Positions 35,864 to 49,349 of a DNA stretch of 64,000 nucleotides are shown one piece after another. Source of the stretch: Actinomycetota bacterium (GTDB taxonomy: Bacteria > Actinomycetota > Actinomycetes > Actinomycetales > Dermatophilaceae); the NCBI GenBank assembly GCA_040006795.1, contig JBDTWH010000166.1:27780-91779 (forward strand), in the 5' to 3' direction. Both the position numbers and the translations under genes were made by a program. Within the stretch, counting starts at the first letter, position 1; each line of letters opens with the position of its first letter. The notes below the pieces were generated by a model, which searched no databases, had not been told where the DNA came from, and saw only the letters and a list, made by a program, of their open reading frames with translations.

Positions 35864-36808
35864 ATGGCGCACGGAACCTCATCAACGATGCCGCAGGCTG
35901 CGCATCTGACCCGCTCGATTCCACGGATGCTCGAGCAGGAGGGAACGTCCTACAGCTTCGAGTTCTTCCCGCCCAAGGACGACGCGGGTGAGCAGACGCT
36001 GTGGGAGGCGATCCGTCACCTGGAGCGTATCCGTCCGACGTTCGTCTCGGTGACCTATGGGGCGGGCGGTTCGACCCGTGAACGCACGGTGCGGGTGACG
36101 GGGCGGATCGCACGCGAGACCACGCTGACGCCGATGGCTCATCTGACCTGTGTCGGGTCATCGGTGGCCGAGCTGCGGCAGGTTGTGGGGGAGTACGCCG
36201 GTGCAGGGATCCGCAACGTGCTGGCTCTGCGTGGTGACCCGCCCGGTGGCCCCGGAACTGCCTGGACCCCCCACCCCGAGGGCTTCAGCCACGCGGATGA
36301 GCTCGTCGAGCTGATTCGTTCGCTGGGCAGCTTCACCGTCGGGGTCGCCGCATTTCCCGACAAGCACCCTGAGTCCGAAGACCTCGACCAGGACGCGGAC
36401 GTGCTCGTGCGCAAGGCCGACGCGGGGGCGGAGTTCGCTGTCACCCAGTTCGTCTTCGACGCCGACAGCTACGTGCGGCTTCGTGACCGGGTGGTCGCCC
36501 GCGGGCGCGACCTGCCGATCATCCCCGGGCTGATGCCGGTGACGAGCTTCTCCCAGGTACGCCGGATGGCCACGATGTCCGGGACGCCACTTCCGGCTTC
36601 TGTGGTCTCCCGGCTCGAGGCCGTCTCAGATGACCCGGACGCGATCCGCGAGGTGGGCGTGGAGATAGCCACCGAGCTGGCCCAGCGGTTGTTGGCGGAA
36701 GGAGCCCCCGGCCTGCACTTCTACACGATGAACCGCTCGCCGGCCACGCTCAGGGTCTATGCCAACCTCGGCGTCCAGACGACGGTCAGGTTGCCGGCCG
36801 GCCACTGA
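35864..36808 (+). CDS. metF: Methylenetetrahydrofolate reductase
   Basis: 314 aa. SFEFFPPK, VSVTYGAGGSTR, ALRGDPP. The start could also be 35888 or 35927. Confidence 0.9.
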   Translation: MAHGTSSTMPQAAHLTRSIPRMLEQEGTSYSFEFFPPKDDAGEQTLWEAIRHLERIRPTFVSVTYGAGGSTRERTVRVTGRIARETTLTPMAHLTCVGSSVAELRQVVGEYAGAGIRNVLALRGDPPGGPGTAWTPHPEGFSHADELVELIRSLGSFTVGVAAFPDKHPESEDLDQDADVLVRKADAGAEFAVTQFVFDADSYVRLRDRVVARGRDLPIIPGLMPVTSFSQVRRMATMSGTPLPASVVSRLEAVSDDPDAIREVGVEIATELAQRLLAEGAPGLHFYTMNRSPATLRVYANLGVQTTVRLPAGH

Positions 36809-36840
36809 AGTGGACCCGGAGTGGGCGACAGGCAGGTGGC

Positions 36841-37203
36841 TCAGTAGCGACTGGCGATGATGTGGCGCACGTCGGCTGTCTGTGATGCATTCACGGAGAC
36901 AGTCAGCTTGCCTGCGAACCGGCCCGCGACCGATGGTCCGTCGTTGAGCCAGTCGCCCGGTGTGGGGGCACGATGCCCCACCCGTCTCTGCTCTTCCAGC
37001 AGCTGTCGAGCCTGGCTGCGCGACCCGGAGAACATGTCTTCCATCGCGGCGAACGCCACAGCAGCCGACCCTTTGCTGACCCCGTGGAGGCGAATCCATC
37101 CCCGCTGCTCCGCTGCCTTCAGTGCCCGGCCGATCGCAAGAAGCAGGGCCACTGCGACGAGGGTCGCCAGCGCGATCTCGACCCCCGTTCGCTGCGTGAT
37201 CAT
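36841..37203 (-). CDS. Hypothetical N-terminally anchored small protein
   Basis: 120 aa, one TM (VEIALATLVAVALLLAI). No motif recognised. Confidence 0.4.
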   Translation of the reverse strand: MITQRTGVEIALATLVAVALLLAIGRALKAAEQRGWIRLHGVSKGSAAVAFAAMEDMFSGSRSQARQLLEEQRRVGHRAPTPGDWLNDGPSVAGRFAGKLTVSVNASQTADVRHIIASRY

Positions 37204-37244
37204 CGTCCCATCCTAGGCATCATGAGGCGCAGCCAGGGCGCCGC

Positions 37245-37280
37245 CAGATGACCCATCCAAAAAGACAGATGACCCATCCA
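37245..37280. repeat. Direct repeat cagatgacccatcca x2 with 21-bp period, intergenic
   Basis: Copies at 37245-37259 and 37266-37280. Confidence 0.9.
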
Positions 37281-37304
37281 GAAGACCTGTCGTCGGCTGG
37301 TGCG

Positions 37305-37339
37305 TCGGTCAGGCGATCTCGTGCCTCGGTCAGGCGATC
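37305..37339. repeat. Direct repeat tcggtcaggcgatc x2 with 21-bp period, spanning the stop codon of the YbaK-like gene
   Basis: Copies at 37305-37318 and 37326-37339. The second copy contains the TGA (37330-37332, minus strand). The first is a duplicated pseudo-3'-end. Confidence 0.9.
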
Positions 37340-37839
37340 GCGGCCGGGCGGCCTCCGGTGAGCCTCAGCAGCTCGTTGTAGGACGTTGGGAAGACCGCGT
37401 GGGGGTGGCCCGCCGCGGCCCATATCTGGTCATAGCCACTCAGGGAGATGTCGACGACGGTCTCGATGGGATGGCTGAGAGCTATCGGCGCCACACCTCC
37501 GATCGTGAAGCCCGTGTGTTCTCTGACGAAGTCGGCATCGGCGAGGGAGATTGCCCGCAGCTCCAGCAGGTCTGCGAGTCTGAGGGTGTCGACCCGGTGT
37601 GCTCCTGAGGCGAGGACCAGCAGAGGCCGGATCATCTCGTCGCCGCGATCGGCCGCAAAGACCAGGGAGTTGGCGATCTGGGCGATCTCGATCCCCAGCG
37701 CGTCTGCAGCCTGCCTCGCGGTTCTTGCGGCGTCATCCAAAACGGTGATCTGTCCGCGGGTGCCGAAGGACGCGAGCGCAGCGGCCACCCGACGCACGCA
37801 GGGATCGTCGGTTACGTCCTCGCGGCTCAGACCGGTCAT
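37330..37839 (-). CDS. YbaK/EbsC-type aminoacyl-tRNA editing (deacylase) domain protein
   Basis: 169 aa. TARQAADALGIEIAQIANSLVF and GGVAPI are typical of the YbaK/ProX family. Confidence 0.78.
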   Translation of the reverse strand: MTGLSREDVTDDPCVRRVAAALASFGTRGQITVLDDAARTARQAADALGIEIAQIANSLVFAADRGDEMIRPLLVLASGAHRVDTLRLADLLELRAISLADADFVREHTGFTIGGVAPIALSHPIETVVDISLSGYDQIWAAAGHPHAVFPTSYNELLRLTGGRPAAIA

Positions 37840-37953
37840 CTGGCGAACGGTAGCCAGCCCGGGGTCCTTCGGGGAAGAGCACTGGGCGGGATGCTCGGAG
37901 GAGTACCCACGACATCGTCGCAGGAGTCCTCAACAGGTCGGGGGTTGACGGGC

Positions 37954-37975
37954 TGTCGGAGTCGCGGTGTACCTT
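37954..37975 (+). promoter_or_regulatory. RecA-NDp-like (PafBC-type) promoter motif upstream of the polymerase operon
   Basis: cTGTCGGAG-TCGCGGTG-TACCTT fits tTGTCRgtg-N8-TAnnnT. Confidence 0.5.
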
Positions 37976-37983
37976 TGGATTAG

Positions 37984-37999
37984 TCGAACATATGTTCTA
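37984..37999 (+). promoter_or_regulatory. LexA (SOS/Cheo) box
   Basis: TCGAACATATGTTCTA against the actinobacterial TCGAAC-N4-GTTCGA: 11 of 12 defined positions match. It lies in the 17-nt spacer of a possible TTGGAT(37975)-N17-TAGATT(38003) promoter, about 115 nt upstream of the ATG at 38115. Confidence 0.75.
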
Positions 38000-38114
38000 G
38001 ATTTTTCGTTCGACCGGTACGTCTGGTTCTGCGGCGGGCGCCTCGACCCCGTCCGTCGCAGGCCGGACGCACCCTCTGAACCCAACCTCCGCACACGTCC
38101 GAAGGAGCCCGACC

Positions 38115-38444
38115 ATGGTGCGTCGTTATGAGGAGTCCATCGAGGTCCGGGCAGGTGCCGGCGTTCAGGACCCGCCGCCTTCTGCCTTCCTGTGGCGCGG
38201 TCGGCTCTACATCGTCCGCGACGTGATCGGGCACTGGCGAGAGCGCAAGGCATGGTGGCGCGAGGCCCTCGACCCCGATGAAGAGACTGCGGCCCGTGGG
38301 CTGGACTGCCTTGAGCACGAGGTATGGCGGGTGGAAGCCAGCGCCGGCCGACTGGCCAACACCGGGGTGTACGACCTGGGGATGAACGCCCTGGGGATGG
38401 ACGGGCTTGCGCCCAGCTGGCGACTCCTGCGCGTGGCGGACTAG
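38115..38444 (+). CDS. Small Trp/Arg-rich protein, DUF6504-like by recollection
   Basis: 109 aa. AAGGAG RBS 7 nt upstream. FLWRGRLYIVRDVIGHWRERKAWWRE core. First gene behind the LexA box. Confidence 0.65.
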   Translation: MVRRYEESIEVRAGAGVQDPPPSAFLWRGRLYIVRDVIGHWRERKAWWREALDPDEETAARGLDCLEHEVWRVEASAGRLANTGVYDLGMNALGMDGLAPSWRLLRVAD

Positions 38445-38455
38445 GTGGTGTGGCT

Positions 38456-38899
38456 ATGACAACTCGTACTGCAACCGTGCCACGGGCACCCCTGGCCAGC
38501 ACTGCACTGGATCTGCTCGACCGATCCCGGGCCAGCCTGCTGTCGGCCTGCCACGCTGACACCGTCGCTGAGCGCTACATAGAGGCTCACCTCGCCGCGT
38601 TGCGGGCTGCAGCCGCGTTGCTGGCTGCGCGCAGCAGGCCAAGCCGGAGTGCACGGCTGCGCAGCGTGTGGGAGGTGCTGCCGCAGATGGCTCCCGAGCT
38701 GACCGAGTGGGCGGTGTTCTTCGCAGCCTCGGCCAGGCGTCGGGCGGCGTTCGAGCGAGGTTCGGCCGGGCCGGGTGCACGCGAGGCCGATGACCTTCTA
38801 CGGCAGTCCGAGACCTTCTTCGAGCTGATTCAGGGGGCACTCGGCCTGCCCATGAGCCGGCCGTTGCCCGAGTTCATGGCGGTGACCAGGTCGGCATGA
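38456..38899 (+). CDS. HEPN-like helical protein (SAV_6107-family-like by recollection) with an Rx4H motif
   Basis: ORF 38324..38899 trimmed to the ATG at 38456 (MTTRTATV...). Ala/Leu-rich and helical. RYIEAH at codons 40-45. Its stop overlaps the polymerase start (ATGA 38896-38899). Confidence 0.6.
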   Translation: MTTRTATVPRAPLASTALDLLDRSRASLLSACHADTVAERYIEAHLAALRAAAALLAARSRPSRSARLRSVWEVLPQMAPELTEWAVFFAASARRRAAFERGSAGPGAREADDLLRQSETFFELIQGALGLPMSRPLPEFMAVTRSA

Positions 38900-41800
38900 G
38901 TGATGCCTTCGCCCACCTGCACGTCGCGTCCGGTTTCTCGTTGCGTTACGGCGCATCGACCCCGGCGGCGTTGGTGGAACGTGCTTCGGCACTGGGCCAG
39001 CCCGCGCTGGCTCTGACGGACCGTGACGGGCTTTATGGCGCGGTGCGTTTCGTGCAGGCTTGCGACGAGGCCGGCATCGCTCCGGTACTGGGGGTGGACC
39101 TGGCTGTGGAGCGCGGGGTGGACCTGGCTGTGGATTACGTGGGGGACAGACAGGCCAGCTCTCCTGCAGGTCGAGGTATCCGGGCGGGCCGGGCCAGTCC
39201 CGCCCGGGGCGGTGCCGAGGTCGATCCCCGGCATCCCCGGGTCACGGTGCTGGCGCGAGGGCAGAGTGCGGGGGTCGACCCCGGGGTCGGCTGGGGCAGG
39301 TTGTGTCGCCTGGTGACCCAGACCCACCTCAGGGGCGAACGCGGAGCTCCGGTCAGCAGTCCAGAGCTCATCGCCGAGCATGCCACCGACCCCCGGAGCG
39401 GAGCACTGGCTCTGGTGGTCCTGCTCGGGCCGGCCTCTGATGTGGGCCAGGCCTTGCTGGCGCGCCGTCCCGGCCGGGCGCGCATGCTGTTGCGCCAGTG
39501 GGTCAACCTGATGCCCCGCGGCGGAGTGGTTATCGAGGTGGTGTGTCACGGCGGGCCGGAGGGCACCCCGGCCAGCCTCGGACATGCCGCCCGGCTGCTT
39601 GGCCTGGCCACTGAGGTCGGGTTGCCGACGGTGCTCACCGCGGCGGTCCGTCATGCCGATCCTGGCGGTGCCGTGACCGTTGACGTTCTTGATGCTGCCC
39701 GACGCCTCGTGCCACTGGACACGCGCCATCTCGACCGGGTCACCACTGCTGGTCATCTCAGCTCATCGGCCCAGATGTATACCGTGGCCTGCGACGTCGC
39801 CCGGGCCGCCGGCGGCGGGATCAGCGGCGGCAGCAGCGGTGAACGTGACAGGGCTCGCCAGCTGATGGCCGACACGGTGGCCCTGGCACAGGCCTGCACG
39901 CTGGATCTGAGCACCGACATCGGCATCGGCTCGGTGCACCTGCCCGAGCCCTCGGCACTCGGGATTGCCGCGGGTGAGAGCCCCCAGGAGATTTTGGCTG
40001 CTCGTTGTCGGGGGGCCATTGCCACGAGATACGGGGGAGCGGGGGACTGCGAGCTGTCAGCGGTGGCATCACGGCTCGATGACGAGCTTCGCGTCATTGC
40101 CCAGCTTGGCTATCCGACCTACTTCATGACGGTGGCGGCAGTGTGCGACCTGATCCGCGATCTCGGGGTGCGGGTGGCAGCAAGAGGTTCCGGTGCCGGC
40201 AGCCTGGTCAACTACCTGCTGGGCATCAGCGGGGTGGAGCCTTTGCGTTATGGCCTGCTCATGGAGCGGTTCTGCTCACCGCTACGCGCCCAGCTTCCCG
40301 ATATCGACATCGACGTGGAGTCAGCGCGGCGGACCGAGATCTACCAGCATGTCCTGGAGCGCTTTGGCGGGGACAGGGTCACCTGTGTATCGATGATGGA
40401 CACCTACCGGGCGCGCCACGCGATCAGGGACGTGGGCGCCGCCCTGGGGCTGCCGCCGGGTGAGATCGACGTCATCGCCAAGGCGTTTCCGCACATTCGG
40501 GCCCGCGATGTCCGTGGCGCCCTTGCCGAGCTGCCCGAGCTGCGCGCCAGCGGCCTGACTGCTCCTCGCCTGCGTGTTCTCTTCGACCTCGTGGAACGAC
40601 TCGACGGTCTGCCCCGGCACATCGCCGTGCACCCCTGCGGGGTGATCCTGTCCAACAAGGAGCTGCTCGACCGCACCCCGGTCGAGGCCAGCTGGCTGGG
40701 GTTCCCGATGAGCCAGTTCGACAAGGACGACGTCGAGACCCTGGGCCTGCTCAAGCTCGACATCCTCGGCATCCGCATGCAGTCCGCGATGGCGCACGCT
40801 GTCGATGAGGTGGCCCGGGTCGACGGCGTCAGCATCGACCTCGACGACCGGGCTCAGGTCACTCTCGATGATGACCGGGCATTTCGCCTGATCCGGTCCA
40901 CGCACACGCTGGGGTGCTTCCAGATCGAGAGCCCTGGTCAGCGTGAGCTGATCGGCAAGTTCGGGCCGGAGACCTTCGAGGACCTGATCATCGACATCTC
41001 GTTGTTTCGTCCCGGCCCGGTCAAGTCCGACATGATCAGCCCGTTCCTGCTGGCCCGCAATCATTGGCGTTCGCCGGAGTACCTCCACCCCACCCTTGAA
41101 CCAGCGCTGAAGGAGACCCAGGGCGTCGTGGTCTTCCACGAACAGGTGCTCAAGATCGTTGCCGAGACCACCGGTGTCACCCTGGCTCAGGCAGATGAGG
41201 TCCGCAGGGCACTGGGATCCCCTCAGGCTCAGCTGGACATCGAGGCCTGGTGGCGACCTGCAGCGGCGGCCCGGGGCTATGAGCCGGCAGCGGTCGACCG
41301 GATCTGGGAGGTTCTCAAGGCGTTCGCTTCCTTCGGTTTCTGCAAGGCTCACGCGGCAGCCTTCGCGTTGCCCACCTACCAGTCGGCGTGGCTCAAGGCG
41401 CATCACCCGGCGGCCTTCTTGTCCGGTGTGCTCACCCACGACCCGGGCATGTACCCCAAACGGCTGATCCTGGACGACGCACGCAACCTGGGCATCACCA
41501 TCCTGGGGCTGGACGTCAACGCCTCGGGTGCGAGCTACCGGGTGGAACGGGTCTCTCAGTTGGCCCTTGGTGACTGCGACAGTGACGTGCCTGACGGGGG
41601 TCAGACTGATGGTGGCGTGGCTGACGGTGGCGTGCCTGATGGTGGTCTGGCTGATGGTGGCGTGCCTGACAGTGGTCTGGCTGACCGTGTCCCTGTCAGG
41701 CGATCGCTGGTCGCCGACCTTCCCGACGGGCGGGCTTATGGCATCCGGCTGTCTCTGGCCGACGTCAAGGGCATCAGCGAAGCCGAGGTTCAGCGCATTC

Positions 41801-43056
41801 TGGCCGGCCAGCCGTACATCACACTTGCCGACTTCTGGCATCGCGCCCAGGTCAGTCGCCCAGTGGTCGAACGGCTGGTCATGGCCGGGGGGTTCGACTC
41901 GGTCTACGGGCTCAGTGGTCTCTGCGTGGCCTCAGGTGGCAGCGGTACGACCGGGCGGCGAGGCAGGGTGACCCGGCGTGACCTCTTGCTGCATGTGGCC
42001 GAGCTCGACCGGTGGTCTGGTTCGGTGCGCCGATCCGGTCGCAGGGCGGCAGCTCGTGCGCCCAGGTCCGTGGCTGCCAGTGCTGCCGCGGCTACTCGCG
42101 GGGCGACACTGGCGCGAGAGACACGGACGCGCGCAACACCGGCCGGCCCAGCCGCCCCCGAGACGGGAGACGTGCGGCTTCTGGCAGCAGCCCAGTCCCG
42201 AGGCGGGTTGCCCGTCATACCGGCTCGGGAGCAGCCCACCCAGCTCACCCTCGACCTGGGGGACGCCCCCGAGCTCACCACGGCCACCGGCCTGCCCGAG
42301 ATGACGGGGCCAGAGCGGGTTCGGGCCGAGCTGGAGATTCTCGGGCTGGATGCCAGTGCTCACATCGTCGATTTCTACGCCCCGATGTTGCAGGCGCTCG
42401 GAGTGACCCGATCTGGTCAGCTCCTCGGACATCGAAGTCGCTCCGAGCTGTGGGTCGCCGGGGTCAAGGTCGCCACCCAGACACCGCCGGTCCGCTCGGG
42501 TCGACGCGTGGTGTTCCTCACTCTCGACGACTCCACAGGCCCGGTCGACGCAACCTTCTTCGAGGACGTCCAAGGTCCCTATGCAGCGACAGTTTTCCAT
42601 TCCTGGATGCTTCTGGTCCGCGGGATCCTGCGACGGACCGGCTCCAGGGGGGTCTCCCTGCGCGCAACCGGGGCGTGGGAGCTGTCCGGGCTGTGGGATG
42701 CCTGGAGTCAGGGTGGTCTCGAGGCTGTGCACGCGGCGCTGTCCGAAGCCGATGGTCATGGTGTCGATGAGTCTGGTGTCGATGAGTCTGGTGTCGATGA
42801 GTCTGGTGTCGATGAGTCTGGTGTCGATGAGTCTGGTGCTGACCCGGGCAGCTCTGCTGGTGGGATGGACGGCCCCCGCACCCGGATGCTGGTGCATGCC
42901 TCAGGGTTCAGACAGTCGCCCTATGCGGACGTCAAACCTGCCGGCGGCGATGTCAGGGACTCCCACAGCCTGCCCGGGGAAGGCCGCGCAGTTCCCTCTG
43001 AAGGCGCCCCGCCGCGCAAGCTGTGGCACGCCAGCCCCGGAAGCTCAGGGCGCTAA
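38896..43056 (+). CDS. dnaE2: DnaE-family DNA polymerase III alpha-like, DnaE2/ImuC-type, with large low-complexity insertions
   Basis: 1386 aa. N-terminus FAHLHVASGFSLRYGAS...LALTDRDGLYG (PHP-like, DnaE2-style GAS). Palm motifs LPDIDIDVE and LLKLDILGIRMQS. VVFHEQV and FCKAHAAAFA. OB-fold-like C-terminal region, then an acidic (GVDES)5 tail. The DnaE2 assignment rests on the N-terminal pattern plus the LexA box, not on phylogeny. Confidence 0.85.
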   Translation: MSDAFAHLHVASGFSLRYGASTPAALVERASALGQPALALTDRDGLYGAVRFVQACDEAGIAPVLGVDLAVERGVDLAVDYVGDRQASSPAGRGIRAGRASPARGGAEVDPRHPRVTVLARGQSAGVDPGVGWGRLCRLVTQTHLRGERGAPVSSPELIAEHATDPRSGALALVVLLGPASDVGQALLARRPGRARMLLRQWVNLMPRGGVVIEVVCHGGPEGTPASLGHAARLLGLATEVGLPTVLTAAVRHADPGGAVTVDVLDAARRLVPLDTRHLDRVTTAGHLSSSAQMYTVACDVARAAGGGISGGSSGERDRARQLMADTVALAQACTLDLSTDIGIGSVHLPEPSALGIAAGESPQEILAARCRGAIATRYGGAGDCELSAVASRLDDELRVIAQLGYPTYFMTVAAVCDLIRDLGVRVAARGSGAGSLVNYLLGISGVEPLRYGLLMERFCSPLRAQLPDIDIDVESARRTEIYQHVLERFGGDRVTCVSMMDTYRARHAIRDVGAALGLPPGEIDVIAKAFPHIRARDVRGALAELPELRASGLTAPRLRVLFDLVERLDGLPRHIAVHPCGVILSNKELLDRTPVEASWLGFPMSQFDKDDVETLGLLKLDILGIRMQSAMAHAVDEVARVDGVSIDLDDRAQVTLDDDRAFRLIRSTHTLGCFQIESPGQRELIGKFGPETFEDLIIDISLFRPGPVKSDMISPFLLARNHWRSPEYLHPTLEPALKETQGVVVFHEQVLKIVAETTGVTLAQADEVRRALGSPQAQLDIEAWWRPAAAARGYEPAAVDRIWEVLKAFASFGFCKAHAAAFALPTYQSAWLKAHHPAAFLSGVLTHDPGMYPKRLILDDARNLGITILGLDVNASGASYRVERVSQLALGDCDSDVPDGGQTDGGVADGGVPDGGLADGGVPDSGLADRVPVRRSLVADLPDGRAYGIRLSLADVKGISEAEVQRILAGQPYITLADFWHRAQVSRPVVERLVMAGGFDSVYGLSGLCVASGGSGTTGRRGRVTRRDLLLHVAELDRWSGSVRRSGRRAAARAPRSVAASAAAATRGATLARETRTRATPAGPAAPETGDVRLLAAAQSRGGLPVIPAREQPTQLTLDLGDAPELTTATGLPEMTGPERVRAELEILGLDASAHIVDFYAPMLQALGVTRSGQLLGHRSRSELWVAGVKVATQTPPVRSGRRVVFLTLDDSTGPVDATFFEDVQGPYAATVFHSWMLLVRGILRRTGSRGVSLRATGAWELSGLWDAWSQGGLEAVHAALSEADGHGVDESGVDESGVDESGVDESGVDESGADPGSSAGGMDGPRTRMLVHASGFRQSPYADVKPAGGDVRDSHSLPGEGRAVPSEGAPPRKLWHASPGSSGR
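39091..39134 (+). repeat. In-frame 24-bp-period duplication (ggggtggacctggctgtgga x2) in the polymerase PHP region
   Basis: Copies at 39091-39110 and 39115-39134. Encodes GVDLAVER-GVDLAVDY. Confidence 0.92.
41593..41682 (+). repeat. Six imperfect in-frame 15-bp repeats (DGGQT-DGGVA-DGGVP-DGGLA-DGGVP-DSGLA) inserted in the polymerase
   Basis: Read directly. The units differ by 1-4 nt. Confidence 0.9.
42760..42834 (+). repeat. Five perfect in-frame 15-bp repeats (ggtgtcgatgagtct) encoding (GVDES)5 near the polymerase C-terminus
   Basis: Read directly. All five copies are identical, and a sixth degenerate copy follows. Confidence 0.97.
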
Positions 43057-43140
43057 GGTGGAGATGACCCGAGCATCACCGCAGTCGCCCCGTCTGGCCT
43101 GTTACCCGGCGGCGACCACCAGCACAAGAGGAGCCTTGTC

Positions 43141-43917
43141 GTGGCTGATGAAGGGCGACGTAGTGGGCGCAGCGACGTCGAGACCTCCGTGCGTACCTCT
43201 GCTGTGTGGGAGTCCGTGCGGGCCGTGGTGGTCGACCGCGAGCAACAGCTCGGTCGCCGGCTGCGCGTCGTCGATCTTGGTGGTGGCACAGGCGGTCTGG
43301 CAGTTCCACTGGCTCAGCTCGGTCATCACGTCACGGTCATCGACCCCAGCCTGGACGCGTTGGCCTCGCTGCACCGCCGGGCTGGCGACTCCGGGGTCGC
43401 CGGGCTCATCGTTGCCGTGCAGGGCGATGCCGCAAACCTGCTTGAAGTCCACCCCGACGCTGACGCCGACCTCGTGTGCTGTCATGGCGCGCTGGAGTTC
43501 GTCGACGACCCGGCAGCGACCCTGCGATCCATCGCCGGGGTGCTCGCAGACGGCGGATACGTCAGTCTCGTGGTCGCCACCCGCATCGCCGCCGTGCTGG
43601 CCCGTGCGCTTGCCGGCCAGTTCGCCCAGGCGCAGTGCGCGCTCACCAGTGATGACGGTCGATGGGGTCCGGCCGATCCGCTACCGCGGCGCTTCGATGC
43701 GGGCGGCATCACTGCCCTGGTCGAGGGCGCAGGGCTGGGCGTCCAGGACATTCATGGCGTTCGCATCTTCAGTGATCTCGTACCTGCCGCCTATGTCGAC
43801 TTCGATGCCGACCGGGCCGCACTGCTCAAGCTCGAGCAGGCTGCTTCTCGTCATCCCGAGTACGCCTTCCTCGGGCACATCGGTGCAGCTCTGCATGTGC
43901 TGGCCCGCCGTAGCTAA
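43141..43917 (+). CDS. Class I SAM-dependent methyltransferase
   Basis: 258 aa. Motif I VVDLGGGTGGLAVPLA, then HHVTVIDPS. The start codon is uncertain (GTG 43141 or downstream). Confidence 0.78.
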   Translation: MADEGRRSGRSDVETSVRTSAVWESVRAVVVDREQQLGRRLRVVDLGGGTGGLAVPLAQLGHHVTVIDPSLDALASLHRRAGDSGVAGLIVAVQGDAANLLEVHPDADADLVCCHGALEFVDDPAATLRSIAGVLADGGYVSLVVATRIAAVLARALAGQFAQAQCALTSDDGRWGPADPLPRRFDAGGITALVEGAGLGVQDIHGVRIFSDLVPAAYVDFDADRAALLKLEQAASRHPEYAFLGHIGAALHVLARRS

Positions 43918-44001
43918 CCCGCCGCAGGACCGGCTTTTTGACAACCGGGCGGTGCGCACCCGTGTCACCTCGCCGCATGACTATCGCCAGGACTCCCGGC
44001 G

Positions 44002-45261
44002 ATGAGCCGGCGCCAGTTCGTCGTTCCCGAACGCCAGGGCGATCAAGCTCCTGACGACGAAGGCTGCTCGATCCTGCACGTGGATATGGACGCGTTCTAC
44101 GCGCTGGCGTCCCTGCTGAGCCGGCCCGAGCTAAAAGGCACGCCAGTCATCATCGCTGGTGGCGGCAATCGAGGGGTCGTCCTGTCGGCGACCTACGAGG
44201 CGCGCGCTTTCGGTGTGCACGCAGCGATGCCGACCGCGCGGGCCCGACGGTTGTGTCCACAGGCCACTGTCGTGGCTCCTGACCATGCCCGCTACGAACG
44301 AATCTCCCGAGCCGTCATGGCGGTGTTCGCCAGCGTGACGCCGTTCGTCGAGCCGCTGTCCCTGGACGAGGCGTTCCTGGATGTGTCCGGCGCCCGCCGC
44401 CGGCTGGGCTCGCCACGTCAGATTGCCCAGGGGATCCGCGACACGATCGCTGACGAGCAGGGCATCACCTGCTCGGTCGGGGTCGCTACCACCAAGTTCA
44501 TCGCGAAGCTCGCGTCGGGCTTGGCCAAACCCGACGGCCTGCTCGTGGTTCCCGAGACCGAGGTGGTCGGATTCCTTCACCAGCTGCCGGTCGGCGCCCT
44601 GTGGGGTGTCGGGGAGCGCACGGAGGAGGTTCTGCAGCGTCTGGGGCTGCAGACCGTGGCCGACATCGCCCACACGCCGGTGGACACCTTGCGCAGAGCC
44701 CTTGGCGACAACGCCGGACCTGCCCTGCACGCGCTGGCCTGGGGACGCGACTCACGCTCAGTGATGCCCATTCGTCGCGAACGCAGCATCGGTGCTGACG
44801 AGACGTTCCCCTACGACGTGGACGACCCGGCCTACATCCACCGTGAGCTGCTCAAGCTCAGCGACCGCACCGCGGCCCGGGTGCGTGCAGCGGGGATGAT
44901 GGGACGAACGATCTCGATCAAGGTGCGCTTCTCGGACTTCACCACGATCACGCGATCCAAGACCCTGCGCGACCCCACCGACGTCAGCCGCGATATCTAC
45001 GCGACGGCTCGCGCACTGTTCGACGCGTTGGGTCTGCAGAGAGCCCGCCTGCGCCTGGTCGGCGTTCGGATGGAAGGCCTGCTGGAATCCGATCAGGCAC
45101 CGGTACAGGGGCTGCTCGATGAGCCGGAGCACGGCTGGCGTGACGCCGATCGCGCGGTGGATCGGGCCAGTGCGCGGTTCGGTGCCGGTGCGGTTCGACC
45201 TGGCAGTCTGGTGGAAGGTGAGCGGTTGGCTACCGCTCCGAAGCGCGGCGACATATCCTGA
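44002..45261 (+). CDS. dinB: DNA polymerase IV (Y-family)
   Basis: 419 aa. ILHVDMDAFYA, SLDEAFLDVSG, LPVGALWGVGERT. Confidence 0.92.
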   Translation: MSRRQFVVPERQGDQAPDDEGCSILHVDMDAFYALASLLSRPELKGTPVIIAGGGNRGVVLSATYEARAFGVHAAMPTARARRLCPQATVVAPDHARYERISRAVMAVFASVTPFVEPLSLDEAFLDVSGARRRLGSPRQIAQGIRDTIADEQGITCSVGVATTKFIAKLASGLAKPDGLLVVPETEVVGFLHQLPVGALWGVGERTEEVLQRLGLQTVADIAHTPVDTLRRALGDNAGPALHALAWGRDSRSVMPIRRERSIGADETFPYDVDDPAYIHRELLKLSDRTAARVRAAGMMGRTISIKVRFSDFTTITRSKTLRDPTDVSRDIYATARALFDALGLQRARLRLVGVRMEGLLESDQAPVQGLLDEPEHGWRDADRAVDRASARFGAGAVRPGSLVEGERLATAPKRGDIS

Positions 45262-45375
45262 ACAGGGTGTCGGTGACAAGCCTTTTTTGAGTACTACACA
45301 GCGCCGGTTCGGGTAACGAATCGGCACAGTGGGACGTTGTTGTCATACAGTGGAGCCGCCCACGGGAGGTCGAAG

Positions 45376-45807
45376 GTGCCGCTTTCAGATCATGAGCAAC
45401 ATCTGCTTGAGCAGATGGAACAAGCGTTGTATGCCGAGGATCCGAAGTTTGCCTCGCAGATGCAAGGCTCTGCTGCGCGTGCCCGCCTGCGGAAGGTCCT
45501 CGCTATCGGGGCCGGGGGCGTTATCGCCGGACTTGGGCTGGTTGTGCTGGGTGTGGTCACTGAGTCCATCTGGTGGGGTGCCATCGGCTTCGCGCTGATG
45601 GTCGGCGGGGTGGCCTACGCGATCAGCCCGCCAAAGGTCCCCAAGGCGCAGCTGGGCGCGGTCCTCGAGGACGGGTCCGTGCGTCCGCGTGAGCCGGCAC
45701 GTCGCCTCGGCAAGCTGAGCAAGAGCAAGAAGTCCAACGCCAACAAGCAGACGTTCATCCGACGCATGGAAGAGCGTTGGGACCGTCGGCGCGACGGCGG
45801 GCAGTAG
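45376..45807 (+). CDS. DUF3040-like membrane protein
   Basis: ORF 45337..45807 trimmed to the GTG at 45376 because GGGAGG lies 6 nt upstream. PLSDHEQHLLEQMEQALYAEDPKF followed by two TM segments. The equivalent gene sits near mraZ in other actinobacteria. Confidence 0.72.
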   Translation: MPLSDHEQHLLEQMEQALYAEDPKFASQMQGSAARARLRKVLAIGAGGVIAGLGLVVLGVVTESIWWGAIGFALMVGGVAYAISPPKVPKAQLGAVLEDGSVRPREPARRLGKLSKSKKSNANKQTFIRRMEERWDRRRDGGQ

Positions 45808-45812
45808 CCAAG

Positions 45813-45849
45813 TCTGGGCACCAAGGACGTGCTTCTGGGCACCAAGGAC
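45813..45849. repeat. Direct repeat tctgggcaccaaggac x2 with 21-bp period
   Basis: Copies at 45813-45828 and 45834-45849. Confidence 0.92.
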
Positions 45850-45899
45850 ATGGGGCTGGAGCCGGCACAAGGCTGGAGCTCGCACAAGCAAAACGACCT

Positions 45900-45974
45900 C
45901 TACGACGTGACGGACGTCCACAACTTGGCCCGTCTACGACTTGACGGACGTCCACAACTTGACACGGACGTCCA
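45900..45974. repeat. 28-nt direct repeat x2 (34-bp period) plus a third partial copy, each carrying the palindrome GGACGTCC
   Basis: ctacgac(g/t)tgacggacgtccacaacttg at 45900-45927 and 45934-45961, and acggacgtcca at 45964-45974. GGACGTCC occurs at 45912, 45946 and 45966. Confidence 0.92.
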
Positions 45975-45985
45975 TGACTCGGCGA

Positions 45986-46023
45986 CGGGTGTTGATGCGG
46001 TCAGCGGGTGTTGATGCGGTCAG
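45986..46023. repeat. Perfect 19-bp tandem duplication (cgggtgttgatgcggtcag x2) spanning the stop of the DUF456-like gene
   Basis: Copies at 45986-46004 and 46005-46023. The second contains the minus-strand TGA at 46020-46022. Confidence 0.95.
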
Positions 46024-46502
46024 GCCGTCGCCGCTACAGCGATCAGCCAGGTGCTGGCAATCGCGAGACCCGTCAACAGCTCAATTCCCATGCTCAGACC
46101 GATGGCTCTGAGAGCGTGCCTGGTCGACGACCAGGCTGTGGCGTGGGTGCTCCCCTTGACGCGTTCGGCCAGATAGATCCCGAGAGGGAAGCCCAGGAAC
46201 GCACCAACGACCGGGATCAGGAAGAAGCCCGCCACAGCCAGAGCTACGCCTGCCGCTGTGCTGGACCTGGTGACACCGGAAGCTGCCATGCGCCGACCGG
46301 GCAGGAGATAACGCAGGACCAAACCTGCCAGCGCCAGGGACGTGGCGATGCCCAGGACCACCCATCCCGCCGACGTCTGCGCTTGCGAAGCCCAGATGAG
46401 CACGGCCGCCCAGACCAGCAGGAGTCCGGGCAAGACAGGCACGATGATGCCGATGAACCCGACGAGCATGATCAGACCTGCGAGAACGGTTACTCCGTCC
46501 AT
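46020..46502 (-). CDS. DUF456-like integral membrane protein
   Basis: 160 aa, 4 TM. VLAGLIMLVGFIGIIVPVLPGLLLVW is a typical N-terminus (family name from memory). Confidence 0.7.
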   Translation of the reverse strand: MDGVTVLAGLIMLVGFIGIIVPVLPGLLLVWAAVLIWASQAQTSAGWVVLGIATSLALAGLVLRYLLPGRRMAASGVTRSSTAAGVALAVAGFFLIPVVGAFLGFPLGIYLAERVKGSTHATAWSSTRHALRAIGLSMGIELLTGLAIASTWLIAVAATA

Positions 46503-46550
46503 CCAGGGGGACCAGACGACCGTCGAGTTCCAGGTTTGAGCTTGCCGGAC

Positions 46551-46784
46551 CTAGCTTGCGTCCGCGTCGGCGCCGACCGGGGACGGCATCAGTCGATCGG
46601 TCTCGTCCTGGATGTTGGTGGACAGCCCCTGCAGCTTGGGCAGGTGCTCGCGCCCGTGGTGTGCGCAGAAAAGCAGCTCGCCACCAGAGCTGAGGCGGGC
46701 GCGCACATAGGCTCGGGCGCCACAGCGGTCGCAGCGGTCAGCCACGGTCAGAGTCGGTGCCAGTGCAGTTGTCACGTCTACCAT
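46551..46784 (-). CDS. Small conserved zinc-ribbon-like protein (CxxC...CxHH)
   Basis: 77 aa. DRCDRCGARAYVRARLSSGGELLFCAHHGREH. I recall it as a conserved actinobacterial small protein near type II topoisomerase genes. Confidence 0.6.
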   Translation of the reverse strand: MVDVTTALAPTLTVADRCDRCGARAYVRARLSSGGELLFCAHHGREHLPKLQGLSTNIQDETDRLMPSPVGADADAS

Positions 46785-47063
46785 CCATTCCGTTGTAGTG
46801 GGTGCCGTTGGCGGTCCTACCTGGTGTCGCGATCTCGTCCGTATCCCTGCTGGTCCTGATTCTGTTGCCGATACGTCTTAGACGCTTGCCGAGTGGTTTG
46901 CGTTGTGGGCTAACCCATTCGCCGGTTGTAACAGTCAAACACGAAGATTGCTTCCCGAAGTCCATTCTGCCCAGATCTGACGAAGAATCTTGCCGTGTTT
47001 CTCTCTCCGCGCAATCCCCTGCGGGCCCGAATGCCGTGCTCCCCCGCGTGGCTGTGGCGTGCC

Positions 47064-47085
47064 TGTCGGGGCGGGGAGATAGCCT
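47064..47085 (+). promoter_or_regulatory. RecA-NDp-like promoter motif upstream of the ParE-like gene
   Basis: cTGTCGGGG-CGGGGAGA-TAGCCT. The -10 hexamer is the same as at 5324. It ends 50 nt before the ATG at 47136. Confidence 0.45.
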
Positions 47086-47135
47086 GCCAGAGAGTCTCAG
47101 ACCGGCCTCAGCCGGCGCTCAGCTGCACCGAGAGG

Positions 47136-49349
47136 ATGTCCGTGGCCATCGCCACCCGAACAAGAAGAACCGCAACGACGTCTGGCGCCGCCTCAGGCTC
47201 TGGCAGACAGAGCGCCGGGTCGCCCAACGCTGACTCGAGCGGCGCTGACTCACCGACATACATGGCTCGGCACCTGCAGGTCCTGGAAGGTCTCGAGGCG
47301 GTTCGCAAGCGTCCGGCGATGTATATCGGGTCGACGGACGCGCGTGGGCTGATGCACTGCGTGTGGGAGATCATCGACAACTCGGTTGACGAGGCTCTGG
47401 CGGGGGTCTGCGATCACATCGACGTGGCGTTGATGGCCGATGGGTCGGTCGAGGTCCGTGACAACGGGCGGGGCATTCCCGTGGACATGGAGCCACGCAC
47501 CGGACTGTCTGGTGTCGAGGTGGTTTTCACCAAGCTGCACGCCGGTGGCAAGTTCGGTGGCGGCTCTTACACCGCCTCCGGTGGCCTGCACGGCGTGGGC
47601 GCCTCGGTGGTCAACGCGCTGTCCGCCCGGCTGGATGTCGAGGTCGACCGCGGGATGAGGACCCACGCGATGAGCTTTCGCCGGGGTGAGCCCGGCGTCT
47701 TCACCGACGTCTTGGGCGACAAGACACCGCATGCCGGTTTCACGGCGTACGTGGACAACAGCGAGCTGAGGATCGTCGGCAAGGTGGGCCGCGGAAAGAC
47801 CGGCAGCAGAGTTCGCTACTGGCCAGATGACCAGATCTTCCTGGCAGACGCCGCATTCAGCTATGACGAGCTAGCCTCACGGGCCCGCCAGACGTCCTAC
47901 CTCATCCCGGGTCTGACACTCGTTATCCGTGACGAGCGTGGTGTGCCCGGCACGCCGGGCGAAGACGGACCCTTTGAGGAGACCTTCCTGCATGAGGGAG
48001 GCATCAGCGAGTTCGCCGAGTTCCTGGCTATCGACCCGCCCCTGACCGACGTGTGGCGTCTGCAGGGTTCGGGAACATTCCATGAGAACGTGCCGGTGCT
48101 CGACGACCGCGGCCGGATGACGCCCACCGACCTCGAGCGCGAGTGCCATGTTGACGTTGCACTGAGGTGGGGTACCGGCTACGAGACCAGGACCCTGTCA
48201 TTCGTCAACATCATCGCCACTCACAAGGGTGGCACCCATATGGCAGGCTTCGAGCAGGCGATGCTCAGGGTCCTCCGCAAGCAGCTGGAGGTCAACGCCC
48301 GCCGGCTCAAGGTCGGGTCGGACAAGGTCGAGAAGGAGGACGTGTTGGCCGGCCTCACGGCGGTGGTCACGGTCCGACTCGCAGAGCCCCAGTTCGAGGG
48401 GCAGACCAAGGAGGTGCTGGGGACCTCGGCGGTACGCGCCATCGTGGCCAAGGTCATAGACAAAGAGCTCACCGCCATGCTGACCGCTACCAGGCGGGGT
48501 GGGAAGGCCCAGGCCTCGATGCTTCTGGAAAAAGTAGTTGCCGAGATGAAGTCGCGGATCAGCGCACGGCAGCACAAGGAGACCCAACGGCGCAAGAACG
48601 CGCTGGAGACCTCCTCCCTGCCGGCCAAGCTGGCCGACTGCCGAAGCGGCGATATCGAGCGGACGGAGCTCTTCATCGTCGAGGGTGACAGCGCCCTCGG
48701 AACCGCAAAGCTGGCCAGGTCCTCGGACCACCAGGCGCTCCTGCCGATTCGGGGCAAGATCCTGAACGTCCAGAAGGCGTCGCTGGCCGACATGCTCAAG
48801 AACGCGGAGTGTGCGGCGATCCTTCAGGTCATCGGCGCCGGCTCGGGCCGCTCGTTCGACCTGAGTGCCGCGCGGTACGGGAAAGTCATCATCATGACTG
48901 ACGCGGACGTCGACGGAGCGCACATCCGCACCCTGCTCCTGACGCTGTTCTTTCGTTACATGCGGCCCCTGGTCGAGGCGGGACGGGTCTTTGCCGCGGT
49001 CCCCCCTTTGCATCGCATCGAGGTGATCAACCCTGGCAGCAGGAAGAACGACCTCCTTTACACCTACAGCGAGCCCGAGATGCGTCGGGTGTTGTCCACG
49101 CTGGAGAAGAAGGGCCGCAAGGTCAAACAGCCGCTCCAGCGGTATAAGGGCCTGGGCGAGATGGATGCCGACCAGCTGGCCGAGACGACGATGGATCCTC
49201 GCCATCGGATGCTGCGTCGGGTGACCCTCAAGGACGCCGAGAACGCAGAGGTTGTGTTCGACCTGCTGATGGGTCACGATGTCGCGCCGCGCAAGGACTT
49301 CATTATCGAGTCCGCGGCAGCGCTGGACCGCCAGCGCATCGACGCCTGA
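47136..49349 (+). CDS. parE: Type IIA topoisomerase subunit B (ParE / topoisomerase IV-like)
   Basis: ORF 46995..49349 trimmed to ATG 47136 (GTG 47142 is also possible). LEGLEAVRKRPAMYIGS, GHKL ATPase motifs, Toprim EGDSA and MTDADVDGAHI. Confidence 0.88.
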   Translation: MSVAIATRTRRTATTSGAASGSGRQSAGSPNADSSGADSPTYMARHLQVLEGLEAVRKRPAMYIGSTDARGLMHCVWEIIDNSVDEALAGVCDHIDVALMADGSVEVRDNGRGIPVDMEPRTGLSGVEVVFTKLHAGGKFGGGSYTASGGLHGVGASVVNALSARLDVEVDRGMRTHAMSFRRGEPGVFTDVLGDKTPHAGFTAYVDNSELRIVGKVGRGKTGSRVRYWPDDQIFLADAAFSYDELASRARQTSYLIPGLTLVIRDERGVPGTPGEDGPFEETFLHEGGISEFAEFLAIDPPLTDVWRLQGSGTFHENVPVLDDRGRMTPTDLERECHVDVALRWGTGYETRTLSFVNIIATHKGGTHMAGFEQAMLRVLRKQLEVNARRLKVGSDKVEKEDVLAGLTAVVTVRLAEPQFEGQTKEVLGTSAVRAIVAKVIDKELTAMLTATRRGGKAQASMLLEKVVAEMKSRISARQHKETQRRKNALETSSLPAKLADCRSGDIERTELFIVEGDSALGTAKLARSSDHQALLPIRGKILNVQKASLADMLKNAECAAILQVIGAGSGRSFDLSAARYGKVIIMTDADVDGAHIRTLLLTLFFRYMRPLVEAGRVFAAVPPLHRIEVINPGSRKNDLLYTYSEPEMRRVLSTLEKKGRKVKQPLQRYKGLGEMDADQLAETTMDPRHRMLRRVTLKDAENAEVVFDLLMGHDVAPRKDFIIESAAALDRQRIDA

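Follow-up and report, generated by a model that had tools for sequence, protein, structure and literature searches.

What kind of mutasome is encoded by a LexA-box-led cassette in which a DnaE-family polymerase follows two small genes and no full-length imuA' or imuB lies beside it? DnaE2 damage-induced mutagenesis drives mycobacterial drug resistance, and the canonical mutasome of Mycobacterium, Pseudomonas, and Caulobacter consists of ImuA (ImuA'), ImuB, and DnaE2 (ImuC). The locus considered here lies in a 64,000-nt window, that is, the whole stretch of actinomycetotal DNA that was analyzed. A sequence-only reading of this window had recognized the cassette and proposed that it may be an undescribed accessory module for SOS mutagenesis. 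The features on which the present analysis relies are listed in Table 1.

Table 1. Features of the SOS-box operon, in window coordinates
Feature	Position	Strand	Basis or remark
LexA (SOS) box TCGAACATATGTTCTA	37984..37999	.	115 nt 5' of the first gene's ATG
DUF6504 protein, 109 aa (free-standing ImuB-C)	38115..38444	+	Pfam PF20114
HEPN_SAV_6107 protein, 147 aa	38456..38899	+	Pfam PF18726, AF2 fold
DnaE2B-group C-family polymerase, 1386 aa	38896..43056	+	Pfam domains, N-terminal identity, NJ tree
Class I SAM-dependent methyltransferase, distantly CmoM-like	43141..43917	+	Pfam Methyltransf_11/25
DinB-type Y-family polymerase (PolY-core)	44002..45261	+	NCBIfam Pol IV NF003015

The five genes between 37984 and 45261 are co-directional and closely packed behind the SOS box. 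The DUF6504 frame stops with TAG at 38444, leaving an 11-nt gap before the ATG of the HEPN gene at 38456, and the HEPN stop and the polymerase ATG share an ATGA at 38896-38899; the gaps in the polymerase, methyltransferase, and DinB part measure 84 nt. No terminator-like sites were found in 37700-45500. The box differs at one position from TCGAAC-N4-GTTCGA, the promoter-region operator of the actinobacterial LexA regulon, and is the sole site with at most one mismatch within the 64 kb. Of 76 related loci, 61 have a site of this quality no more than 300 bp 5' of the cassette, compared with 0.4% of 3355 background windows, and a near-perfect box precedes ∼80% of the actinobacterial loci in the census described below. 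Spacing, overlap, and box are all as the sequence-only reading had reported them, as are the methyltransferase and DinB genes downstream. Its view that the small upstream proteins belong with the cassette also holds. The arrangement is no product of chance, since its gene order recurs in 34 of the 58 fully covered related loci. A precedent for such control is the dnaE2-dinP locus of Streptomyces venezuelae, an experimentally verified LexA target that is induced ∼30-fold (PMC9380542). With a probability of roughly 0.8, the region is read here as one LexA-repressed operon for a translesion mutasome that lacks ImuA and ImuB and is of the DnaE2B-PolY-ImuB-C-RecA type.

Assignment of the polymerase is central to this reading. 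The 1386-aa protein contains the PHP, DNA_pol3_alpha, finger, HHH_6, and OB domains of Pfam together with two low-complexity repeat inserts, and the palm aspartate motifs are intact (PDIDID at aa 468 and KLDILG at aa 620), as had been noted from the translation. Its scores on the two relevant NCBIfam equivalogs are nearly equal, 610 bits on the error-prone model and 590 bits on the DnaE model, and both lie far under the respective cut-offs of 939 and 1002. The near-equality of these scores, as well as the absence of any other dnaE in the 64-kb window, is what could favor a replicative DnaE1, or a sole dnaE, in a cassette with a housekeeping rather than a mutagenic role. In DnaE1 the N-terminal motif of the PHP domain has the pattern HLHxH..S.LDG. 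The corresponding motif of this polymerase, HLHVASGFSLRYG, leaves that pattern after H-L-H, and the intact PHP proofreading site expected of a replicative enzyme is not found. Over the N-terminal ∼415 aa, identity reaches 59% with the DnaE2B of Janibacter (APH01279) and 40-46% with those of Tessaracoccus, Streptomyces, and Arthrobacter, compared with 25-29% for DnaE2A and DnaE2X. The reference sequences for DnaE2A, DnaE2B, and DnaE2X are fragments of ∼400 aa, and in a neighbor-joining tree built on these fragments the polymerase falls with actinobacterial DnaE2B. A DnaE1 identity was rejected on the sub-cut-off score, the tree placement, and the PHP motif; the LexA box upstream also speaks against a housekeeping cassette, as does the reported near-confinement of DnaE2 to species that have a DnaE1 as well (PMC12926913), and such a role is scarcely credible. 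By these comparisons the protein is a member of the DnaE2B group with intact polymerase active-site motifs, in agreement with the earlier impression that it resembles DnaE2 rather than replicative DnaE1. The PDB holds no structure of a DnaE2 or an ImuB.

The 109-aa protein, which had been taken for a partner different from ImuB, belongs to the DUF6504 family (PF20114, E 5.5e-21) and is 48% identical to the ImuB-C of Janibacter indicus (APH01277, E 2e-25; PMC12926913). PF20114 also matches the other ImuB-C proteins of that study and, at its C-terminus, a full-length ImuB. Judged by these matches, the protein is the free-standing form of the ImuB C-terminal domain, a family defined in 2013 (PMC3765255), encoded here beside the polymerase. 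Published AlphaFold models place ImuB-C on the DnaE2 PHP domain (PMC12926913), and the DUF6504 protein is accordingly a predicted partner of the PHP domain of this DnaE2B. An AF2 model of the protein alone, built with 38 close homologs, reached a pLDDT of 48, too low for fold comparison, and indicates only a mostly beta protein; a sequence search of the PDB with the same query returned nothing meaningful.

The downstream DinB had been left outside the module. It scores 387 bits on the Pol IV model NF003015 (cut-off 367), carries the catalytic motifs DMDAFY (aa 28) and SLDEAF (aa 120), and is 74.5% identical to the Janibacter PolY APH01281. Its C-terminus contains a RecA-N-terminus-like motif, GWRDADRAVDRASARFGAGAVRPGS, and the stretch GWRDADRAVDRASARFGAGAVRP, near-identical to the motif published for Janibacter PolY, resembles the N-terminus of RecA (RecA-NT). 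From these features it is classed as a catalytically intact Y-family polymerase and as a subunit of the published system. That system, the DnaE2B-PolY-ImuB-C-RecA module of Actinobacteria, was described from genome analysis and AlphaFold models (PMC12926913, NAR 2026) with precursors in 2013 and 2019 (PMC3765255, PMC6511836), so that the suggestion of an undescribed module does not stand. The examples given are Janibacter indicus, Kineococcus radiotolerans, Ornithinimicrobium pratense, and Tessaracoccus lapidicaptus (PMC12926913). Stand-alone ImuB-C, DnaE2B, and an active PolY with RecA-NT motif are common to these and to the present locus, which comes from the same phylum, and the Janibacter proteins are orthologous to those of the window (the 59% for DnaE2B referring to its N-terminal region). 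In the published module RecA is encoded elsewhere, and the 64-kb window here contains no RecA-like ORF.

Compared with the canonical mutasome, the locus shares a predicted SOS induction, a DnaE2-type polymerase whose PHP domain ImuB-C is predicted to hold, and a Y-family module bearing a RecA-NT motif. It differs in that the window encodes no ImuA, that ImuB-C is carried on a protein distinct from the Y-family part, that the Y-family polymerase is intact whereas ImuB is dead, and that the C-family polymerase is DnaE2B instead of DnaE2A. Within the 64-kb window no second Y-family or C-family ORF and no ImuA-like or RecA-like ORF was detected, and the cassette has no full-length imuA' or imuB beside it, as the sequence-only reading had maintained.

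As published, the module comprises four proteins and includes neither HEPN_SAV_6107 nor the methyltransferase, both of which are interleaved with its genes here. The accessions of the Janibacter module skip APH01278 and APH01280, the places taken by the HEPN and methyltransferase genes in this operon; the Kineococcus accessions ABS04677/79/81 show the same gaps, and Ornithinimicrobium has one gap, QFG68258, between ImuB-C and DnaE2B. Judging by these gaps, HEPN and methyltransferase genes are probably interleaved in three of the published examples as well. The methyltransferase reaches 90 bits on the NCBIfam CmoM model, far under its cut-off of 366, and its PADLOC match to mad2 spans the generic methyltransferase domain only. 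It is present in 33 of the 58 complete loci, follows DnaE2B or HEPN and precedes DinB in many loci, and always lies 5' of DinB where DinB exists.

The literature suggests how the encoded proteins could act. DNA damage would stimulate LexA cleavage through RecA and derepress the operon. In the published AlphaFold models, ImuB-C would then dock on the PHP domain of DnaE2B, and PolY would contact DnaE2B and use its RecA-NT motif to bind one RecA protomer, which may stand in for ImuA; the assembled complex would carry out error-prone lesion bypass. These subunit contacts are predictions made by others, modeled without HEPN or methyltransferase.

The 147-aa protein is a component that the published module leaves out. 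It matches HEPN_SAV_6107 (PF18726, E 8e-30), a family of 911 clusters at 50% identity that is classified as HEPN-M (SAV_6107) (PMC3710099). Its AF2 model (pLDDT 91.8) shows a four-helix HEPN fold, and the top PDB structure matches are the HEPN proteins 1wol, 1ufb, and 3o10 (probability 1.0, TM 0.56-0.68); a sequence search of the PDB with the HEPN profile gave nothing meaningful. The earlier description of a HEPN-type helical protein is therefore confirmed in its fold but not in its motif. Helix 2 opens with RYIEAH, but the canonical Rx4-6H belongs at the end of helix 3 or in the helix 3-4 loop; RYIEAH was rejected as a canonical HEPN RNase motif because it sits in the wrong helix. Helix 3 of the model comprises residues 80-100 and, as mapped by helix order, contains R96 (88% conserved) with no histidine after it.

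A catalytic function could still be built on a non-canonical site. The protein would then be induced by the SOS response as an RNase or toxin-like effector, or as another stand-alone damage-response regulator, that uses R40/H45 with R96 and has no more than the promoter in common with the polymerases. The HEPN fold itself is consistent with such a role, R40 and H45 of the R40-x4-H45 motif in helix 2 are 97% and 86% conserved and are placed by helix topology at the bundle end that also holds the canonical site (R96), alternative-histidine HEPN active sites have been discussed (PMC3710099), and the gene retains its LexA box when it stands alone. Against it, the family is listed as motif-less, with no histidine at the canonical position, and glutamine replaces H45 in 9% of clusters. 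HEPN RNases and HEPN-MNT pairs (PMC3710099) share the four-helix fold, but the MNT systems are mobile and multi-copy with an adjacent minimal nucleotidyltransferase (MNT) partner; HEPN_SAV_6107 is a single-copy chromosomal SOS-box gene in conserved synteny that adjoins DNA polymerases, its neighbors being DUF6504, DnaE2, the methyltransferase, and DinB, with no antitoxin or MNT partner among them. A plasmid search found no HEPN_SAV_6107, and the PADLOC defense-system models matched neither this protein nor DUF6504. An effector of this kind is improbable.

The distribution of the gene bears on its link to the polymerases. The census took in 80 actinobacterial loci, and 58 related loci were fully covered. 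All 34 complete loci that contain DnaE2 have the HEPN gene placed between ImuB-C and DnaE2B; its stop overlaps the DnaE2 start in 10 of 47 loci and the two are at most 35 nt apart in 33 of 47. Where DnaE2 is missing, DinB follows directly in six loci and methyltransferase-DinB in five, and 11 of the 58 complete loci have HEPN without any polymerase gene; the HEPN gene is thus not confined to DnaE2 loci.

Two interpretations of this pattern compete with a regulatory role. The first, itself a tentative one, makes HEPN_SAV_6107 an additional integral part of the mutasome, a subunit or assembly factor that binds DnaE2B, RecA-NT PolY, or both. For example, HEPN might gate clamp or RecA access, in a part comparable to that of ImuA or UmuD' in other mutasomes. 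The constant position between ImuB-C and DnaE2B, the overlapping or abutting start, and the frequent succession by DinB would all fit an integral subunit, as would the many surface polar residues conserved to at least 85% (R40, H45, R50, E84, R96, R109, D112, D113, and R116) and one database protein that fuses HEPN to a PHP domain, possibly through a frameshift. However, the published AlphaFold complexes are confident without HEPN, distant members of the family adjoin ligA or unrelated genes, and ImuB-C/DnaE2B pairs without HEPN exist in Tessaracoccus, Arthrobacter, and Nonomuraea. Because of these pairs and the 11 polymerase-free loci, HEPN is not an obligate mutasome subunit.

The second interpretation is inherited synteny without functional coupling, in which HEPN and the methyltransferase are ordinary, conserved neighbors in a metF-ybaK...DUF3040-parE region and a mobile ImuB-C/DnaE2B pair entered this region by insertion. 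Loci with HEPN alone do keep the flanks metF, DUF3040, DUF456, and parE, and DUF6504 occurs on a plasmid (one of two matches in the plasmid search, the other being actually a chromosome), whereas HEPN does not. Yet ImuB-C and DnaE2B are not adjacent but have HEPN between them, the stop/start overlaps are conserved, and the LexA box stands 5' of whichever gene is first; mere synteny is unlikely.

HEPN_SAV_6107 is, in any case, a second and more widely distributed SOS-box gene within the operon. Since the gene order and the stop/start overlap are conserved and the canonical HEPN motif is absent, its most likely role is that of a helical, non-catalytic adaptor or regulator working with translesion polymerases, and not that of an RNase. 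The alternative raised in the sequence-only reading, a regulator carried along by the mutasome operon, may hold for the HEPN protein. A bolder proposal, advanced with considerable reserve, is that it is a previously unrecognized LexA-controlled protein that occurs throughout Actinomycetota and serves the ImuA-less DnaE2B mutasome and RecA-NT DinB enzymes as a fifth component or gatekeeper, and that has been kept as a stand-alone SOS gene after polymerase loss.

The locus adds little to the published ImuB-C/DnaE2B/PolY module, which is known from computational work of 2019-2026, although the four-protein description omits two conserved members of the operon. The undescribed part is the small HEPN-fold SOS-box protein, a candidate for an unrecognized SOS gene linked to translesion polymerases and as such a testable lead. 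If it regulates or assembles polymerases, actinobacterial SOS mutagenesis would have a new control point, and a family of ∼900 sequence clusters its first assigned function; if not, it is likely still a new addition to the core of the actinobacterial LexA regulon. String matching in the LexA ChIP and RNA-seq supplements for S. venezuelae found no 'HEPN', 'SAV_6107', or 'metF'. Among the long database proteins annotated as HEPN there are no DUF6504-HEPN fusions; their extensions contain no Pfam domain and, with the exception of the HEPN-PHP protein, look like mis-called starts.

The modular build of the mutasome is visible in its ImuA-less variants. The lexA-imuB-C-polY locus of Geobacter sulfurreducens and other PolY-ImuB-C modules (PMC6511836, PMC3765255) resemble the present operon in the stand-alone ImuB-C 5' of a Y-family polymerase that is active, and in SOS control, which is predicted for the present operon, but they lack both DnaE2 and the HEPN gene, and lexA itself is often part of them. 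Two census loci, L052 and L073, with the order DUF6504-HEPN-methyltransferase-DinB, represent the actinobacterial analog of these modules, with HEPN added.

The cassette comprises five co-directional ORFs preceded by a LexA box and a divergent gene. The DUF6504 and HEPN_SAV_6107 ORFs are 11 nt apart, the HEPN and polymerase ORFs share an ATGA overlap, and 84 nt separate both the polymerase from the methyltransferase (MTase) gene, which has a good ribosome-binding site (AGAGGAG), and the MTase from the DinB gene. No terminator-like sites were found between 37700 and 45500. In a scan of the 64 kb, TCGAACATATGTTCTA is the sole site within one mismatch of the LexA operator (actinobacterial consensus TCGAAC-N4-GTTCGA). 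The spacing of the ORFs and the single near-consensus box thus confirm every detail of the sequence-only reading, which had described three tightly packed genes behind a LexA box. An alternative upstream ATG would extend the HEPN product to 191 aa with a 121-nt overlap with DUF6504; the 147-aa form is more likely because homologue alignments begin at its ATG, and the long N-terminal extensions of several database homologues seem to stem from the same kind of start mis-call.

Features of the cassette and its upstream neighbour
Feature	Position	Strand	Remark
YbaK-type deacylase gene	37330-37839	-	divergent, upstream of cassette
LexA box TCGAACATATGTTCTA	37984-37999		115 nt 5' of first ATG
DUF6504 ORF, 109 aa	38115-38444	+	first ORF
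HEPN_SAV_6107 ORF, 147 aa	38456-38899	+	second ORF
Alternative HEPN ORF, 191 aa	38324-38899		ATG at 38324
Polymerase ORF, 1386 aa	38896-43056	+	third ORF
Tandem array, ~6 copies	41578-41689		in HHH_6 / beta-binding region
Tandem array, 5.9 near-perfect copies	42750-42838		close to polymerase C-terminus
SAM methyltransferase ORF, 258 aa	43141-43917	+	fourth ORF
DinB ORF, 419 aa	44002-45261	+	fifth ORF

The five genes probably (about 0.8) form one operon under LexA repression that serves a DnaE2B-PolY-ImuB-C(-RecA) translesion complex of the architecture proposed in published models. The ImuB-C domain was defined in 2013 by Aravind and colleagues, who also recorded it as a free-standing protein encoded alongside DinB or DnaE2 in operons (PMC3765255). 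ImuA-less variants, consisting of a Y-family polymerase with a RecA-N-terminus-like motif plus stand-alone ImuB-C and/or DnaE2, were described by Timinskas and Venclovas (2019) (PMC6511836). A 2026 survey recognised three DnaE2 groups (A, B, and X), found DnaE2B in genomes without imuA or imuB, and named two Actinobacteria-only modules, DnaE2B-ImuB-C and DnaE2B-PolY-ImuB-C-RecA (PMC12926913). Its AlphaFold models show ImuB-C as a beta-barrel docked on the DnaE2 PHP domain, and the subunit contacts here would follow these predictions by other authors. RecA-stimulated LexA cleavage would derepress the operon, as suggested by the operator and by experimental data on LexA control of dnaE2-dinP in Streptomyces venezuelae (PMC9380542).

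The identity of each subunit was assessed with Pfam, NCBIfam, and the reference ImuB-C, DnaE2B, and PolY sequences from the supplementary table of PMC12926913. The 109-aa protein matches Pfam DUF6504 (E 5.5e-21) and is 48% identical (E 2e-25) to ImuB-C APH01277 from the DnaE2B-PolY-ImuB-C-RecA module of Janibacter indicus, with E 1e-13 to 1e-22 against ImuB-C of Ornithinimicrobium, Kineococcus, Tessaracoccus, and Nocardioides. Pfam DUF6504 also matches other ImuB-C proteins of the survey and is the top, sub-threshold match in full-length 334-aa ImuB (residues 268-320); by these alignments, DUF6504 is ImuB-C. A monomer structure model of the window protein failed to give a usable fold. The earlier view that ImuB is missing is thereby revised: ImuB is split into an active DinB and a free ImuB-C, with RecA predicted in place of ImuA. 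Within the 64-kb window, imuA, imuB, a separate dnaE1, and recA were all absent.

The 1386-aa polymerase carries PHP, Pol III alpha, finger, HHH_6, and OB domains. Its three catalytic aspartates are retained, in PDIDID (aa 468) and KLDILG (aa 620). Its best NCBIfam model is 'error-prone DNA polymerase' (610 bits, cut-off 939), barely ahead of DnaE (590 bits, cut-off 1002). At the PHP N-terminus, HLHVASGFSLRYG stands where proofreading DnaE1 has the pattern HLHxH..S.LDG. This departure agrees with the degenerate PHP sites of DnaE2 (PMC12926913). The reference DnaE2 sequences are 400-aa fragments only; against them, the N-terminal region shares 59% identity with Janibacter DnaE2B APH01279 and 40-46% with the DnaE2B of other actinobacteria, compared with just 25-29% for DnaE2A or DnaE2X, and a neighbour-joining tree places it among actinobacterial DnaE2B sequences. 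Two tandem arrays built from 15-nt units also run in frame within the polymerase gene, the first encoding DGG(V/L)(A/P)D-like repeats and the second VDESG; they partly account for the size difference from the 1250-aa Janibacter protein and could be length-variable. The DinB protein, an IMS/IMS_C Y-family polymerase above the NCBIfam Pol IV cut-off, keeps DMDAFY and SLDEAF and shares 74.5% identity with Janibacter PolY APH01281, a similarity that extends to the C-terminal motif GWRDADRAVDRASARFGAG.VRP. Pfam assigns the product of the fourth ORF to the class I SAM methyltransferases; its best named relative, the tRNA methyltransferase CmoM, is distant and far below threshold (NCBIfam).

The proposal of an undescribed accessory module is therefore set aside: with orthologous proteins in Janibacter, the cassette belongs to a known, computationally described module (PMC12926913). 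In contrast with the published description, the window cassette contains HEPN_SAV_6107 and the methyltransferase, and the omission of these two conserved operon genes is what is new here. The survey's own accessions skip one number at each step from ImuB-C to DnaE2B to PolY in Janibacter (APH01277/79/81) and Kineococcus (ABS04681/79/77), and between ImuB-C and DnaE2B in Ornithinimicrobium (QFG68257/59); the skipped positions are those of HEPN_SAV_6107 and the methyltransferase in the window. Neither 'HEPN' nor 'DUF6504' occurs in PMC12926913 or its supplements, and in the literature searched 'SAV_6107' appears only in the 2013 HEPN survey, as an actinobacterial family without the Rx4-6H motif and with no genomic context given. 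Genes pvnz_37140-37135 of the Streptomyces venezuelae plasmid pSVJI1 may be another ImuB-C/DnaE2B pair (PMC9380542).

The 147-aa protein matches Pfam HEPN_SAV_6107 (E 8e-30), and its AlphaFold2 model (pLDDT 91.8; helices 15-32, 37-59, 71-78, 80-100, and 108-128) has the HEPN proteins 1wol, 1ufb, and sacsin 3o10 as top PDB matches (probability 1.0, TM 0.56-0.68). The RYIEAH motif noted earlier is well conserved as R40-x4-H45 (97% and 86%, with Gln replacing H45 in 9% of clusters) but sits at the start of helix 2; at the canonical Rx4-6H position, the end of helix 3, R96 is present in 88% of clusters and the histidine is absent. R50, W72, E84, W85, R109, D112, D113, R116, and F121 are conserved at 85-99%. 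The up-down topology would bring R40, H45, R96, R109, and D112-R116 together at one end of the helical bundle, as expected of a surface that binds protein or nucleic acid, or else of a non-canonical active site. Binding is the preferred reading, in view of the Gln substitutions and the absence of toxin-like genomic behaviour: no MNT partner at the loci examined, no copy among 72,556 plasmids, and no PADLOC match. An independent SOS effector or RNase is an unlikely role.

At 50% identity, HEPN_SAV_6107 falls into 911 clusters, whose members are all small proteins, and searching a single genome from each species gave >510 relatives. The best 80 loci, all from Actinomycetota or mislabelled MAGs, are those most closely related to the query and lack phylogenetic independence. 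Among the 58 loci with full flanks, the architectures are DUF6504-HEPN-DnaE2-MTase-DinB (26), DUF6504-HEPN-DnaE2-DinB (8), HEPN-DinB (6), HEPN-MTase-DinB (3), DUF6504-HEPN-MTase-DinB (2), HEPN-MTase (2), and HEPN alone (11); the MTase is kept in 33, some without DnaE2. HEPN lies between ImuB-C and DnaE2 in every DnaE2-containing locus, and its stop overlaps the DnaE2 start in 10/47 loci and lies within 35 nt in 33/47. A function as adaptor or regulator of the polymerases is a tentative possibility. ImuB-C/DnaE2B pairs also exist without HEPN (Tessaracoccus, with contiguous accessions, Arthrobacter type, and Nonomuraea). In Nonomuraea gerenzanensis (L087, 6467-10917), DUF6504 is followed directly by DnaE2, and the surrounding 14 kb has no LexA box with ≤1 mismatch; its 11.85-Mb record, in PLSDB as a plasmid, is evidently a mislabelled chromosome. 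One 289-aa metagenomic protein, P0292, joins HEPN_SAV_6107, cut short at position 83 of the 98-position profile, to a PHP domain; this is either a genuine HEPN-DnaE2 fusion or the product of a frameshift or assembly error where the stop and start overlap.

A LexA box (≤1 mismatch) lies within 300 bp 5' of the first cassette gene in 61/76 loci, 39 of them perfect, against a background of 0.4% of 3355 windows. It persists where HEPN stands alone, at a non-syntenic HEPN locus adjoining greA and hemY, at a HEPN-PolY-DUF3040 locus, and in a distant lineage (L090, GCA_051645425.1, 6001-8630), where a perfect box precedes HEPN by 220 nt and ligA (NAD-dependent DNA ligase) and gatCAB follow 50 nt 3' with no polymerase. 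With the HEPN-less pairs and the absence from plasmids, these boxes indicate that HEPN_SAV_6107 is itself a chromosomal SOS-box gene, usually 5' of a translesion polymerase gene, neither needing the other. Apparently it is a widespread and so far unrecognised member of the LexA regulon, linked with such genes. HEPN-alone loci read metF, HEPN, DUF3040, DUF456, parE (gyrB-like), flanks shared with the window (35864-49349). In Flexivirga, Leekyejoonella, and Branchiibius (Dermacoccaceae-type; L021, L023, L026, L040), only HEPN occupies the position of the five-gene cassette, with a perfect SOS box ~50 nt upstream, a pattern suggesting that the polymerase genes were either lost from, or inserted at, one fixed site.
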